Below, one piece after another: positions 14,988 through 19,859 of a DNA stretch of 64,000 nucleotides (position 1 is its first letter; every line of letters begins with the position of its first letter). A program made the position numbers and the translations under genes. Under the pieces are notes generated by a model. It saw only the letters and a list, made by a program, of their open reading frames with translations, was not told the DNA's origin and made no database searches. The stretch is taken from sequence record MN850574.1. The stretch is one strand, 5' to 3'. Source of the stretch: Escherichia phage kaaroe.

Positions 14988-15191
14988 ATGGAATTGGATA
15001 TGGTTAAAGCAAAATTTATGGGTAAGGATAAGAGCGGTAAAACATTTGTTATTAATAGAACATTGTTTCGCTCTGACCTTAAGTGGGTAACACAACAATT
15101 TGCGGAAGTCAACGAGGCAGTTGTGACATGCTTCGTTGATGATAAAAAAGTTTTTGAAATTGATCGTCGTGGGGTGTCTAATGATCACTAA
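14988..15191 (+). CDS. hypothetical protein (67 aa)
   Basis: ORF with GGTGA RBS. Confidence 0.5.
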   Translation: MELDMVKAKFMGKDKSGKTFVINRTLFRSDLKWVTQQFAEVNEAVVTCFVDDKKVFEIDRRGVSNDH

Positions 15192-15378
15192 ACTGTTTAG
15201 CAATACTTTGTTTCTGATTGCATTTGTTTTCTTTCTGTGTCTGATGATCGGTGTTGTTACAGTAGGTAGCTATTCCGGTGTTACCTTAGATGATTTTTGC
15301 AAACTTGTTATGGTCTCGTTTATACCTAGTATTCTGCTCGCTTTATGTGGTGCTTTCAGATGGCTCTGTGATCTATGA
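15181..15378 (+). CDS. 2-TM membrane miniprotein (65 aa)
   Basis: ATG at 15181 overlapping upstream 3' end; two hydrophobic helices. Confidence 0.5.
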   Translation: MITKLFSNTLFLIAFVFFLCLMIGVVTVGSYSGVTLDDFCKLVMVSFIPSILLALCGAFRWLCDL

Positions 15379-15485
15379 ATGAACAGGAACGAATGATGTT
15401 GATAGGTGGACCGGAGTTCACTAAATTTGATGCAATTCTTATTGCGTTGGGTTTTCTTATGATCTGTTGTATGGTGGCGCTATGA
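15375..15485 (+). CDS. small membrane protein (36 aa)
   Basis: ATGA start/stop overlap with upstream and downstream genes (translational coupling). Confidence 0.35.
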   Translation: MNEQERMMLIGGPEFTKFDAILIALGFLMICCMVAL

Positions 15486-15706
15486 GTAGCATAAAATATT
15501 TTGCTTTCTTGTGTTTTATGATGTTCTTTACATTCTTAGCATGTGTTTTCTTTACATGGCTTGCTCATGTTGATAATGCAACCGGACCGTTTTACTTCTT
15601 CTGTGTGTTGTCTGTGTTGACTGGTGCTCTTGTTACGTGGATGATTCGAGATTGTTACGTAATGTATAAGTTTGAAAAGACTCGACCGAAATGGGGCAAA
15701 CGATGA
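15482..15706 (+). CDS. 2-TM membrane miniprotein (74 aa)
   Basis: ATGA overlap; hydrophobic helices. Confidence 0.5.
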   Translation: MSSIKYFAFLCFMMFFTFLACVFFTWLAHVDNATGPFYFFCVLSVLTGALVTWMIRDCYVMYKFEKTRPKWGKR

Positions 15707-15885
15707 AATTATTTGCGTGGCTAATTATTTTAAATGTAATTGTTAAGACCGTTCTCGCTGGTTTACTGATGATACATAGCACGAAACCAGAAGAAGCATT
15801 AACGTATTTTGTTTCTTATGTGCTGGGATTCTTGCTTACTGCGTGGATGTGTGATGAATATCGAAGAATTGAGGTAAAACCATGA
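15703..15885 (+). CDS. 2-TM membrane miniprotein (60 aa)
   Basis: ATGA overlap; hydrophobic. Confidence 0.5.
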   Translation: MKLFAWLIILNVIVKTVLAGLLMIHSTKPEEALTYFVSYVLGFLLTAWMCDEYRRIEVKP

Positions 15886-16100
15886 AAATGACTTTTTATA
15901 TCTTAGCAAGTATCATTCTTGTGATCTCTTCTGCCTTATTTGCATTTCTTACCGTTTGGGGGGTCTGTACTGATGCGAAGCCGTGGGATATCGTAGAAAA
16001 TACGGTTATGTTTATTATTAGTGTCATGTGTCTTTTTGATGCATTTAACTCTATCAAGGAAGAAGACCAAAAACGTCGCGATAGAAAGCGATATAAATAA
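15882..16100 (+). CDS. 2-TM membrane miniprotein (72 aa) with basic C-tail
   Basis: ATGA overlap; two hydrophobic helices then KRRDRKRYK. Confidence 0.55.
   Translation: MKMTFYILASIILVISSALFAFLTVWGVCTDAKPWDIVENTVMFIISVMCLFDAFNSIKEEDQKRRDRKRYK
16092..16099 (+). promoter_or_regulatory. T4-type late promoter box TATAAATA
   Basis: Exact TATAAATA overlapping stop codon of upstream ORF; followed by 150 nt non-coding structured region. Confidence 0.35.
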
Positions 16101-16248
16101 TAGTGAACTAAAGACAGCGCGGTTAGAATGATTTGGACGTCACCTAGCCGCATTTATTGCGGCGTATGGGCGATCCGGTACGCTAAAGCATTAACTTGCT
16201 AGGCCGCTAGCAGGTTGGAGACAAGGAAGATTCGCTACCTTCCCTATA
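16101..16248 (+). ncRNA. candidate small structured RNA (unclassified)
   Basis: No ORF; three hairpins (16147-16163, 16197-16212, 16225-16243) between a late promoter box and a UUCG-loop terminator. Confidence 0.25.
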
Positions 16249-16277
16249 AGCCACTCTTCGGAGTGGCTTTTTTATTG
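16249..16277 (+). terminator. intrinsic terminator (UUCG tetraloop)
   Basis: agccactc-ttcg-gagtggct hairpin followed by TTTTTTATT. Confidence 0.7.
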
Positions 16278-16301
16278 CCTAAAATTTTTTTAAAAAAGTT
16301 G

Positions 16302-16330
16302 TTGACACCAGATCCGGCCTATAGCATAAT
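16302..16330 (+). promoter_or_regulatory. early promoter TTGACA-17-CATAAT (PeSL-like)
   Basis: -35 16302-16307, -10 16325-16330; downstream leader ACACCCATCGAAACGAAACAC. Confidence 0.65.
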
Positions 16331-16376
16331 ACACCCATCGAAACGAAACACACTTTCTTAAACGGAGAATCAAATT

Positions 16377-16562
16377 ATGGCACGTCGCATCACTAAAGCA
16401 CTGAAAGCAGTAAGCAAAGAAAACGTAGTAGCTATTCTGGTAATCTGGGGTTATAACGAAGAATCCGCTAAACAGAAAGTTGAAGCAGGGTTTGAACTGG
16501 CAGTAAAAGCAATGCCGAATGATGACTCTGTAGGACTGGCAAACTATATTGCATATTTCTGA
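16377..16562 (+). CDS. hypothetical early protein (61 aa)
   Basis: ORF behind promoter; codon usage biased to ctg/cgt/gaa/aaa. Confidence 0.6.
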   Translation: MARRITKALKAVSKENVVAILVIWGYNEESAKQKVEAGFELAVKAMPNDDSVGLANYIAYF

Positions 16563-16570
16563 TAAAAGTG

Positions 16571-18051: not shown

Positions 18052-18248
18052 TGACGATTAGTAAAAATGATATTGGTTTTGTTGCGGGTATCGCTAGCGT
18101 CTTTACTGTTGTTATTTTGCTAATGCTTTTACCCGGTGTATTCTCTGACCAGATTGAATTGTATGTAGCTTTTATCTGTTGCATTTATACTTGGTTTGCA
18201 ATGTTTGTGATTAGTCTAATTATGCAATTCGTCGTTAACAAATTTTAG
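18051..18248 (+). CDS. 2-TM membrane miniprotein (65 aa)
   Basis: ATG overlaps upstream stop (TGATG); track ORF begins at TTG 18048. Confidence 0.5.
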   Translation: MTISKNDIGFVAGIASVFTVVILLMLLPGVFSDQIELYVAFICCIYTWFAMFVISLIMQFVVNKF

Positions 18249-18269
18249 ATTTAATGTGAGGATTATATT

Positions 18270-18590
18270 ATGAGCAAACTGTTTGAAACTCCGCGTGAAA
18301 TTCTGATTGACAAACTGAAAGAACGTGGTTTTAAAATTAAAGATGCAACCAAATACAGCCGAATTGATGAAATTAAGTTGCATTCTCTTGATGAACTGGT
18401 AGAATATGTTGCGGCGGTTGCTGATCCGCAGTTTGATGTGATTGTAGGCGACGTTGAATATCTCGATAATGTATATTCATTCTTCACTTATGGTAAAATT
18501 GTGTCTGTGAAAATTTCATTCTGTGAAAATGTGGAGGTGCTTGCTAGTGAACCAGAAAAACCAACTGACAACGGTCCTTCGGCAGCGTAA
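18270..18590 (+). CDS. hypothetical protein (106 aa)
   Basis: ORF with GAGGATTATATTATG RBS. Confidence 0.55.
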   Translation: MSKLFETPREILIDKLKERGFKIKDATKYSRIDEIKLHSLDELVEYVAAVADPQFDVIVGDVEYLDNVYSFFTYGKIVSVKISFCENVEVLASEPEKPTDNGPSAA

Positions 18591-18861
18591 CAAGGAAGAC
18601 CGTCTGATTTATGCGCTGGCGGTTATCCTTGAAAAAGAATTACCGGATCTTGAGGTAGTTTTTACTGACCGACCAGTAGGCCAACGTTACGGCGGATATG
18701 ATAGCCTAGTTTATCCATCATATAGCCTTGAAATGTGGGTGGAAGATTTTAAAAACTTGGCTGATACATCTAAACCGCTTTATTTGTGGGATGTTGAGTA
18801 TAATTGCGATCCTAACTGGCCTGGCATTAATGTTTATGCGTCTATGACTTTAAAGGTGTGA
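18523..18861 (+). CDS. hypothetical protein; start uncertain, overlaps upstream ORF by 68 nt in another frame
   Basis: Good coding character only downstream of about 18590; possible frameshift or non-ATG start. Confidence 0.35.
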   Translation: MKMWRCLLVNQKNQLTTVLRQRNKEDRLIYALAVILEKELPDLEVVFTDRPVGQRYGGYDSLVYPSYSLEMWVEDFKNLADTSKPLYLWDVEYNCDPNWPGINVYASMTLKV

Positions 18862-18863
18862 TA

Positions 18864-19022
18864 ATGGTTGAACAAATGTTAACTTCAATGGTAATGGCTT
18901 TCTGTATGGTTGTTGTTATGATTGCAATGATCCCTAAAGAGAGAATGAATCTTCTTGTAGCTGTCTGTATGGGCGTTGTTTGTGGATGGTTTGGGATCGC
19001 GCTAGAAGAAGCTCTGCGTTGA
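18864..19022 (+). CDS. small membrane protein (52 aa)
   Basis: ATG overlapping upstream stop; hydrophobic; below track cutoff. Confidence 0.4.
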   Translation: MVEQMLTSMVMAFCMVVVMIAMIPKERMNLLVAVCMGVVCGWFGIALEEALR

Positions 19023-19083
19023 TTAACAATACGGGTAGGGTAATGTACTACCCGCACTAAATTAGCTCACTGGAGGGCTTTCT

Positions 19084-19272
19084 ATGGCGTTTTGTCTATG
19101 GTTGCTTATAGTATGCTTTGTACTGGGTTTATGCTTCTATACTGGCGTATTCTGTTTTGTCGCCTGGATAGACGGCGGATTCTCTAATATCATTTTGCTT
19201 GCCGGATCAATTGCCTCGTTTCTGTTGATATGGCTTTTTTCTTATTTGTTTGGTGAATGGGATTTATTATGA
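19084..19272 (+). CDS. 2-TM membrane miniprotein (62 aa)
   Basis: RBS GGAGGG; hydrophobic. Confidence 0.5.
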   Translation: MAFCLWLLIVCFVLGLCFYTGVFCFVAWIDGGFSNIILLAGSIASFLLIWLFSYLFGEWDLL

Positions 19273-19448
19273 ACAAATATATGTTTTGGGCGACCCTTGC
19301 CTATGTTGTGATTGCGGTAGTCTGGGGATTCTGTGTTATTGTCGCTTCTCTGATCTGGTGGGAATCACTTGGCGCGGGTTGTCTTATTAGCGGCGCATCA
19401 TGTATTATCACTGGCGTGATTGTTGGTTTTCTTGTGTCGGAGGATTGA
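19269..19448 (+). CDS. 2-TM membrane miniprotein (59 aa)
   Basis: ATGA overlap with upstream gene. Confidence 0.5.
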   Translation: MNKYMFWATLAYVVIAVVWGFCVIVASLIWWESLGAGCLISGASCIITGVIVGFLVSED

Positions 19449-19450
19449 CA

Positions 19451-19666
19451 ATGGTTTTCTTCGGTCTTATTATAATGGTGCTTAATGTCATTTGTGGTGT
19501 TGCTATGTTAGCTATGGCCTTTACTGTTCCTATGTCTGTTGACAGCGCCGCATCCGTAGGTGTGTTGGGAATTGTAAACCTGTTTACTGCCATAGCATGT
19601 TGGGTCACTGGACGCGATGAGGTAATGTATTACTTTTATAAACGTAAACAGAGAAAAGGAAAATAA
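19451..19666 (+). CDS. 2-TM membrane miniprotein (71 aa) with basic tail
   Basis: ATG after GGAGGATTGACA; hydrophobic then KRKQRKGK. Confidence 0.5.
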   Translation: MVFFGLIIMVLNVICGVAMLAMAFTVPMSVDSAASVGVLGIVNLFTAIACWVTGRDEVMYYFYKRKQRKGK

Positions 19667-19667
19667 T

Positions 19668-19859
19668 ATGAGATTTGCATTTGGTTTTACCGTGATGTTG
19701 ATTATTGCTCTGAGTATGTGTACCGGAATGCTTGTATTTGGTCTTGCAAACGGGTTTAGCATTTATAATAATCAGTGGGTTGATTGGGGAATGGTTGTCG
19801 TTAATGCTATCCTTATTGGTGCTAATACAAGAACTCTATGCAGGATCGCCGGAATCTAA
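19668..19859 (+). CDS. 2-TM membrane miniprotein (63 aa)
   Basis: ATG 1 nt after upstream stop; hydrophobic. Confidence 0.5.
   Translation: MRFAFGFTVMLIIALSMCTGMLVFGLANGFSIYNNQWVDWGMVVVNAILIGANTRTLCRIAGI

Follow-up and report, generated by a model that had tools for sequence, protein, structure and literature searches.

The window analyzed here is a stretch of 64,000 nucleotides (nt) of Escherichia phage kaaroe (MN850574.1), and its feature of interest is a dense array of small hydrophobic open reading frames (ORFs) that runs up to the endolysin gene. Fourteen ORFs for membrane miniproteins occur within 5.1 kb, all on the plus strand. Thirteen of these lie within 15181-19859, where a first-pass annotation made from the sequence had counted at least 12 of 36-74 amino acids (aa). 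The remaining one, of 52 aa (14820-14978; RB49ORF124c, phrog_16462), sits just upstream of dmd and outside that interval. The ORFs are named below by their first coordinate and by their orthologues in phage RB49, and the ratios of non-synonymous to synonymous polymorphism (pN/pS) come from eight genomes of the genus Krischvirus; that of ORF 14820 is 0.07.

Five of the fourteen ORFs directly follow dmd. The first of them, 15181-15378 (65 aa, RB49ORF122c, pN/pS 0.66), encodes two predicted transmembrane (TM) segments, while 15375-15485 (36 aa, RB49ORF121c) encodes a single C-terminal one and has an ambiguous start, being 29, 36 or 41 aa long depending on the record. These are followed by 15482-15706 (74 aa, RB49ORF120c, pN/pS 0.11), with two TM segments and a basic C-terminal tail, 15703-15885 (60 aa, RB49ORF119c, pN/pS 0.45), with two TM segments, and 15882-16100 (72 aa, RB49ORF118c, pN/pS 0.20), with two TM segments and a highly charged basic C-terminal tail. 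The second cluster is composed of three ORFs with two TM segments each, namely 17670-17852 (60 aa, RB49ORF112c), 17854-18051 (65 aa, RB49ORF111c), which has an acidic loop, and 18051-18248 (65 aa, RB49ORF110c). The third contains 18864-19022 (52 aa, RB49ORF107c), 19084-19272 (62 aa, RB49ORF106c, pN/pS 0.69), 19269-19448 (59 aa, RB49ORF105c) and 19451-19666 (71 aa, RB49ORF104c), each with two TM segments by hydropathy and the last with a basic C-terminal tail, and ends in 19668-19859 (63 aa, RB49ORF103c), which has one clear TM segment and one weaker, and a ratio of non-synonymous to synonymous substitution rates (dN/dS) of 0.12.

The expectation that each ORF would form one or two hydrophobic helices is borne out. 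Two hydrophobic segments are found in 11 of the 14 ORFs with a 19-residue Kyte-Doolittle window at a threshold of at least 1.6, and in 12 of the 14 with a 17-residue window at a threshold of at least 1.5, by which 15375 and 19668 retain one. This agrees with the published TMHMM predictions for the RB49 orthologues, 13 of which are given two TM segments (Nolan et al. 2006, Additional file 2, PMC1524935). By charge distribution, 10 of the 12 hairpins would place both termini in the cytoplasm (N-in/C-in), with net-acidic periplasmic loops of 8-18 residues, and 18864 is the sole member with charges suggesting an N-out/C-out arrangement. The first-pass annotation had described basic tails as frequent; they are clear in 15482, 15882 and 19451, and not in the others. 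The 71-aa product of 19451 was modelled from its single sequence by AlphaFold2 as a two-helix hairpin with long helices, at a mean predicted local distance difference test (pLDDT) score of 72. Taken together, the ORFs very probably encode real membrane proteins. A by-eye check of the array ORFs revealed no convincing lipoprotein boxes. Within 18864, the two TM helices are encoded by similar 21-nt stretches (18897-18917 and 18960-18980) that lie 63 nt apart and are 86% identical, which suggests that this hairpin originated by internal duplication of one helix. Isolated small hydrophobic ORFs also occur elsewhere on the plus strand of the window, at 63041-63184 (47 aa) and 44962-45120 (52 aa), and are probably RB49ORF018c and RB49ORF046c, respectively, judging from position, length and the TM spans tabulated in 2006.

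The ORFs are tightly packed. As had been noticed from the sequence, ATGA overlaps link start and stop codons at five junctions (15181/15375, 15375/15482, 15482/15703, 15703-15885/15882-16100 and 19084/19269), and a TGATG overlap links 17854 to 18051. Three more junctions are separated by gaps of 1-2 nt, and every start in the array has either a Shine-Dalgarno sequence or a coupling overlap. ORFs of at least 50 aa that begin with ATG and encode at least two hydrophobic segments number 11 in the array, against 0.08 ± 0.26 (maximum 1) in 200 dinucleotide shuffles; base composition therefore does not produce the pattern. The density of such ORFs is 2.16 per kb in the array, roughly 30-fold above the 0.07 per kb (three ORFs) on the plus strand of 20301-64000. 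The hydrophobicity could also have been a by-product of a single larger gene in another frame, but no such gene was found on either strand, the longest other-frame ORF being 94 aa, and the substitution patterns are consistent with the annotated frames.

Comparison among relatives argues for selection on these frames. In the eight Krischvirus genomes, nearly all are uninterrupted and unchanged in length, and pN/pS of the membrane ORFs spans 0.07-0.69. A more divergent set of metagenomic Krischvirus-like contigs (L011 and L013-L015), reached through database searches, preserves the array complete and collinear; apart from a divergent allele of 18051, the membrane ORFs there are 64-97% identical at the aa level and the interleaved soluble ORFs 92-100%. 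Against L011, dN/dS is 0.12-0.81 per ORF, with pooled values of 0.27 for membrane and 0.15 for soluble ORFs; synonymous changes outnumber non-synonymous ones in all ORFs, and dN/dS is below 1 everywhere. About 36% of positions vary in the membrane ORFs (38% of TM and 35% of non-TM positions) versus 2-15% in their soluble neighbours. Despite this variability, loop and tail motifs such as GDYELTN.ENLT, TGRDE.MYYFY and SIYNN.WVDWG are invariant across the divergent relatives. Judged from their open frames, dN/dS below 1 and an order kept in divergent contigs, the miniprotein ORFs are thus real, selected genes that evolve faster than their neighbours.

Array members are nevertheless individually expendable. 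Frameshifts interrupt 17670 in FL04 and 17854 in W115 and JK32; 17854 is also gone from Makalu_001, MIZ4 and L015, and 19084 is broken in PHB13. ORF 18051 exists as two alleles that are about 35% identical (Smith-Waterman z 10.5), the alternative being found in Makalu_001, MIZ4 and some metagenomic relatives (L003:4261-4461, L005:4249-4443 and L014:5594-5797, corresponding to window positions 17854-18248). ORF 17854 is usually missing alongside the divergent 18051 allele, although L014 retains it. Neighbouring genes also diverge unequally within the same contigs, with 64% identity for 15882 versus 91-97% for 15482, and 35% for 18051 versus 72-87% for its neighbours. In JK32 (L004:5484-5938), 19084 is partially duplicated in tandem, as a truncated 54-aa copy followed by a full 62-aa copy.

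The members of the array share neither a recognizable ancestor with each other nor a known family. Every ORF has its own small PHROG of unknown function, and none hits the PHROG of another member. Paralogy, which the first-pass annotation had suggested checking, was assessed by Smith-Waterman alignment of all ORFs with each other against shuffled controls; the best z among 91 pairs of window ORFs was 4.0. A tandem paralogous family made by duplication was accordingly rejected for want of convincing similarity and because of the separate PHROGs. ORFs 15482 and 19451 were considered as paralogues on the basis of a common tail (...W..RD..VMY.F.K...GK), yet hhalign returned a probability of only 27%. 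Searches of Pfam, NCBIfam and PADLOC found nothing above threshold for the array ORFs. The Pfam-A scan at E ≤ 1 covered 13 of the 14 membrane ORFs (all except 15375-15485), and among these no match to the Imm family was found. Only Krischvirus-type sequences came back when three of the ORFs were searched by word index in 5.8 billion proteins and when 18051 was run as an exhaustive profile against 1.84 billion representatives. A distant blastn search likewise gave the membrane ORFs no DNA match outside Krischvirus. The array can thus be described, at the sensitivity of these searches, as 14 unrelated orphan families restricted to Krischvirus. As the ORFs have neither T4 homologues nor an assigned family, the statement that standard T4 functions do not explain the array stands. 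The 71-aa ORF carries the label "tail length tape-measure protein" in PHB13, and the same label is present at the matching position of ELT3 and AV108. It was taken as spurious because no miniprotein resembles gp29 of phage Phi1 (best z 2.7; z -0.3 for 19451).

The array is not new as sequence, contrary to what the first-pass annotation implied. RB49ORF103c-124c and Phi1 ORF103-124 are the same genes in the same order at 97-98.6% DNA identity, differing by minor allelic variation only. Orthologues are deposited in about 58 GenBank genomes, among which W115 has ten called "putative membrane protein". The RB49 orthologues were already listed as transmembrane in a table that shows comparable clusters for the T4-like phages Aeh1 and RB43 (Nolan et al. 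2006, Additional file 2, PMC1524935), and as sequence and annotation the feature has therefore been known since 2006. A literature search found no paper that discusses this cluster or gives its members a function.

Megablast with 15000-20300 matched 58 phage records, all of them Krischvirus and including RB49, Phi1, GEC-3S, ECD7 and FL38, at 90-98.6% identity and with query coverage of at least 80% in 51 of the 58. On the basis of these matches, the window belongs to an RB49-type "pseudo-T-even" coliphage rather than to T4. The upstream gene order is gp3, gp1 (deoxynucleoside monophosphate kinase), 57A, 57B (Acb1), ORF125, the 52-aa hydrophobic ORF and dmd. After dmd come five hydrophobic ORFs, a terminator and promoter, four small soluble ORFs, another promoter and the gene for an LPD25-domain protein, and then three hydrophobic ORFs, two soluble ORFs, five hydrophobic ORFs and the endolysin gene, so that the interleaving with soluble early ORFs and the closing endolysin are as first described. 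Downstream of the endolysin lie vs.8, ORF100, vs.6 and nrdC.11. In T4, the slot with the same flanks (3, 1, 57A and 57B on one side, e and, a few genes on, vs.8 on the other) holds ipI, trna.2-4, eight tRNAs, segB, rnaC/D, e.8-e.2 and nudE. These shared flanks place the array in the known variable, or "hyperplastic", early region of T4-type genomes, whose T4 counterpart is the slot between 57B/acb1 and the lysozyme gene. The phage is RB49-like, and its endolysin is an M15 L-Ala-D-Glu peptidase instead of a T4 lysozyme. Three ORFs of the T4 slot, trna.4 (61 aa), e.3 and e.4, are likewise short and early and encode two hydrophobic segments, but they have no detectable sequence similarity to the miniproteins (best z 3.4). 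Such hydrophobic ORFs number four over 7 kb in T4, where they are scattered between tRNAs and soluble ORFs, and 14 over 5.1 kb in Krischvirus.

The soluble genes of the region, all on the plus strand, frame and divide the hydrophobic clusters. The dmd gene (14988-15191; PF17587), encoding the soluble antitoxin against RnlA/LsoA, overlaps the next ORF by 11 nt at its 3' end. Four small soluble ORFs of 61, 75, 62 and 62 aa occupy 16377-17255, of which the first is a DUF7421 protein and the last is gp55.3-like/DUF5490. The LPD25-domain protein (17335-17661, 108 aa; PF18840, E 3.2e-14) is also soluble and carries a domain associated with polyvalent proteins. Two overlapping soluble ORFs of 106 and 104 aa (18270-18861; RB49ORF109c and 108c) are highly conserved, with pN/pS of 0.06 and 0.03. 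The downstream boundary of the array is the endolysin gene (19888-20277; PF13539, E 4.4e-12), whose product has no signal or signal-anchor-release sequence.

Transcription signals divide the region into modules. A terminator hairpin at 14273-14293 and an early sigma-70-type promoter (TTGACA..CATAAT, 14310-14338) lie together on the plus strand at 14273-14359, which includes the first copy of a 61-nt repeat (14299-14359). A second early-type promoter at 14761-14789, matching 10 of 12 consensus positions, stands directly upstream of the first membrane ORF and is a promoter in the GEC-3S annotation too. Further plus-strand copies of the repeat are found at 16291-16351 (promoter 16302-16330) and 17253-17313 (promoter 17264-17292), and an additional early promoter occurs at 16571-16599 within the block of soluble ORFs. 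The promoters at 14310, 16302, 16571 and 17264 each match 11 of 12 consensus positions, as does a site at 19445, which was not counted because it lies inside a coding run and no promoter is placed there in the GEC-3S annotation. Intrinsic terminators at 14273, 16248 and 21387 are consistent with the same annotation. The three repeat copies are 69-100% identical, and a terminator hairpin precedes the first two but not the third. A conserved early promoter with an adjoining stem-loop (PeSL) has been proposed to drive module shuffling in RB49 and Phi1 (Arbiol et al. 2010, PMC2839356). The 61-nt repeats are classed as PeSL-type cassettes bounding gene modules, the repeated early promoter of such modules in RB49-type phages being found at the borders here (14299, 16291 and 17253). 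Given these promoter and terminator positions, the hydrophobic ORFs are assigned to predicted early transcription units, namely unit 1 (14820-16100) and unit 3 (17335 to about 21390, endolysin included), and early expression of the miniproteins is likely.

What such proteins might do is suggested by their location and company. Between acb1 (anti-CBASS), dmd (anti-RnlA/LsoA) and the LPD25 gene, the array lies among counter-defence neighbours, which mark an accessory, conflict-related region. No gene named imm, sp or ac is found anywhere in the Phi1 annotation, as judged by gene name, and the lysis genes of T4 type are already present. Together with the early promoters, these features leave the roles proposed in the first-pass annotation other than lysis timing, namely Imm-like exclusion and inhibition of host membrane complexes or membrane-bound defence, plausible. 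The favoured reading, quite possible if not quite probable, is that the miniproteins are independent early inner-membrane accessory proteins that exclude other phages and/or interfere with membrane proteins of the host, defence effectors among them. Each gene would encode a minimal inner-membrane protein, mostly a hairpin that exposes a short acidic loop to the periplasm and keeps both termini in the cytoplasm, three of them with a basic cytoplasmic tail. Transcription would begin early from the sigma-70-type promoters of three promoter-bounded modules, translation would be coupled along the polycistronic mRNAs, and the products would enter the inner membrane of the host only minutes after infection. 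Because hardly any soluble surface is available, specific action would have to run through helix-helix contacts with membrane-embedded targets. The most likely candidates are, on the one hand, the ejection or tape-measure proteins that superinfecting phages insert into the membrane, so that the missing T4 Imm and Sp functions would be replaced, and, on the other, host inner-membrane proteins, including membrane-bound defence effectors. The unequal divergence of adjacent genes and the sporadic losses, duplications and allele swaps suggest that members would act separately rather than as one complex. They would not form the lysis machinery either.

Small membrane proteins with such activities have precedents. 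MgrB, AcrZ, the phiX174 E protein acting on MraY and the phage M LysM protein acting on MurJ are mostly transmembrane peptides of 30-90 aa that specifically bind or modulate large membrane proteins. PhiNM1 Gp11 is reportedly a further small phage TM modulator (PMC11237401). Unlike the array ORFs, all of these are single genes, and none is homologous to the miniproteins. The T4 Imm protein is a small early inner-membrane protein that reportedly contacts the incoming phage's tape-measure protein gp29 within the membrane and blocks DNA entry, and it has been modelled with four helices (bioRxiv 10.64898/2026.03.06.709160). The array products are likewise small and may share its membrane insertion and early timing, as predicted from hydropathy and promoters, but they are two-helix hairpins and, in the 13 scanned against Pfam, have no sequence relationship to Imm. 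Spackle (T4 Sp) is described as a globular protein of about 97 aa, secreted to the periplasm, where it inhibits the gp5 lysozyme (PMC7677548). Identity with Spackle was rejected for the array ORFs, as none has a soluble periplasmic domain, their loops being 6-18 residues, or, among the 13 scanned, a Pfam match.

Several points weigh against a role in exclusion or interference. To our knowledge, fourteen proteins far exceed the needs of any known exclusion system, and the anti-defence proteins known to us are mostly soluble. The counter-defence neighbourhood is guilt by association, since the same T4 slot holds tRNAs, ipI and unrelated ORFs, and the tight translational coupling could alternatively reflect a stoichiometric complex. 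The literature on RB49, Phi1 and Krischvirus, searched for membrane ORFs, exclusion and omics, yielded no functional data for these ORFs and no omics study of the genus. Additionally, constraint is weak on some members (0.66 for 15181, 0.69 for 19084 and 0.81 for 18051), and several are broken in single isolates, so that some may contribute little.

In its most specific form, the proposal would make each hairpin an Imm-like or colicin-immunity-like blocker of a different competitor's ejection or tape-measure protein, or of a different defence effector. Such an immunity repertoire is distinctly unlikely, but if it were real, the allele swaps of 18051, the sporadic losses and the faster-than-neighbour evolution would record an arms race inside the lipid bilayer, and the genus would hold about 14 natural inhibitors that work by helix-helix contact on separable targets. 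More generally, should some members prove to be in-membrane exclusion or counter-defence factors, it would become clear how a phage of RB49 type can do without Imm and Sp, and minimal transmembrane inhibitors of defined targets would become available. Small hydrophobic orphans make up a sizeable share of the unexplained early genes in T4-type phages. The present locus is unusually dense and is conserved across the genus, and the sequenced isolates supply natural knock-outs and divergent alleles.

Alternatively, the miniproteins could be non-specific membrane poisons, akin to type I toxins or pore-forming peptides, that lower the membrane potential or block host transport or division as part of early host shut-off. 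Their extreme hydrophobicity, minimal size and near absence of soluble surface would suit such a role, as would the similar variation of TM and non-TM positions. Over-induced T4 Imm is itself toxic (bioRxiv 10.64898/2026.03.06.709160), and the novel-ORF regions of these phages, which are early, are hard to clone and under-represented in plasmid libraries (PMC1524935), which suggests toxicity. Against this, the loop and tail motifs kept in divergent relatives and a dN/dS below 1 in every ORF are signs of specific constraint, and fourteen different sequences are maintained instead of one effective toxin. Phage growth depends on ATP and the proton-motive force, and an early collapse of membrane potential would presumably hurt the phage's own multiplication. 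A purely poisonous function is thus unlikely.

Lysis control, which the first-pass annotation had listed among its candidates, would cast the hairpins, especially those of 18864-19859, as class II holin-, pinholin- or antiholin-like timers for the non-T4 M15 endolysin. With 60-75 aa, two TM segments, an N-in/C-in topology and a strongly basic C-terminal tail, 15482, 15882 and 19451 share the layout of class II holins and pinholins such as S21 of phage 21, although this layout is not holin-specific and two of the three sit 4 kb away from the endolysin. Five hairpin genes run into the endolysin gene with no intervening terminator. Faint Pfam matches to holin families (E 0.15-0.93) were recorded, but they score 10-12.5 bits against gathering cut-offs of 27-28.4; the best are Phage_holin_3_6 (E 0.15, 12.5 bits, cut-off 28.4) and Phage_holin_3_5 (E 0.21, 12.2 bits, cut-off 27), and NCBIfam gave no holin match. 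Krischvirus, as represented by Phi1, already encodes a full lysis set of T4 type, with holin t, antiholin rI, rI.-1 and the spanins pseT.2/pseT.3, and for this reason a further lysis role is not expected. Array ORFs also lie behind early promoters, and the exact T4 late-promoter motif TATAAATA occurs only at 16092, with none before the third cluster.

The start of the endolysin gene itself points the same way. A conserved RNA hairpin (19853-19898, plus strand; minimum free energy -12.5 kcal/mol, z -2.8) buries its Shine-Dalgarno sequence and AUG. It is the same in eight genomes and is lengthened to -18.4 kcal/mol in a divergent clade by a spacer deletion and codon changes. This sequestration suggests that the endolysin is under separate, late control and is expressed at a different time from the membrane ORFs upstream. 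In T4, early read-through transcripts of gene e are translationally silent, an arrangement similar to the one seen here. In the 5' arm of the hairpin lies TCTAAATA, which differs from the late-promoter motif at one position. With its lysis genes already in place and its endolysin apparently regulated apart, a role of the array in lysis timing is improbable.

The coupling of the genes raises the further idea of one multi-subunit membrane complex, in which blocks of five, three and five hairpins would form a hetero-oligomeric channel or platform with stoichiometry set by translation. ATGA and TGATG overlaps run over up to six consecutive genes, and gene order is conserved in all relatives. However, ATGA coupling is common among unrelated small genes of T4-type early regions, and the discordant divergence of neighbours described above, together with the viability of isolates in which single members are frameshifted, deleted or duplicated, makes a joint assembly highly improbable. 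It is barely credible that the ORFs are largely non-functional remnants of recombination-driven hyperplastic turnover, whose hydrophobicity would be a mere by-product of a T-rich strand. AT skew does take strongly negative values over just the kilobases that hold them (-0.21, -0.15 and -0.24), the families are orphans without relatives outside the genus and some copies are broken in individual phages, but the frames are open at the same length in 12 relatives, divergent metagenomic ones included, synonymous changes predominate in all, each start has its Shine-Dalgarno sequence or overlap, and the shuffles, which preserve T-richness, hardly ever produce such an ORF.

The first membrane-ORF transcription unit is closed by a conserved, structured non-coding stretch of 170 nt (16101-16270, plus strand), which lies between the last ORF of the first cluster and the PeSL promoter and ends in the intrinsic terminator at 16248-16269. 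Its GC content is 49%, against about 40% for the genome. The predicted fold comprises five hairpins, terminator included, with a minimum free energy of -64.6 kcal/mol (z -4.55), and none of 200 shuffles was as stable. All 58 Krischvirus records have one copy of the element, at 95% identity or more, and in none of them is it labelled an RNA. In two divergent contigs in which the protein of the adjacent ORF 15882 is 64% identical, the element is still 92.5% identical and contains one compensatory pair. The late-promoter motif TATAAATA stands just upstream, at 16092-16099, as the sole exact copy in the interval. Rfam and tRNA scans of the region found nothing above threshold. The element is thus a candidate small RNA or structured 3' untranslated region, situated in the slot where T4 has its tRNAs and rnaC/rnaD.

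Two genes upstream of dmd, the "57B" ORF (13796-14266, plus strand) encodes a full-length Acb1 anti-CBASS phosphodiesterase (PF23474, E 1.5e-51), although most records label it hypothetical or RNA ligase. DNA similarity outside Krischvirus, by distant blastn, is confined to about 16270-17030, a non-coding and soluble-ORF stretch. Most of these matches are to the soluble DUF7421 ORF at 16377 (match 16367-16547), which is 72-79% identical to DNA of many T1-like Drexlerviridae, and 16626-17033 has a 75.7% match to one further phage, GaoY1-9D. Both matches point to gene exchange across phage families. Finally, JK32 (L004:6989-7564) and FL04 (L008:6724-7299) contain an extra 191-aa ORF of homing-endonuclease/AP2 type directly 3' of the endolysin gene. 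In exactly these two phages, whose overall identity is 90-91%, the blastn match to the endolysin ends at nt 351 of 390, a divergence that may stem from endonuclease-associated co-conversion.

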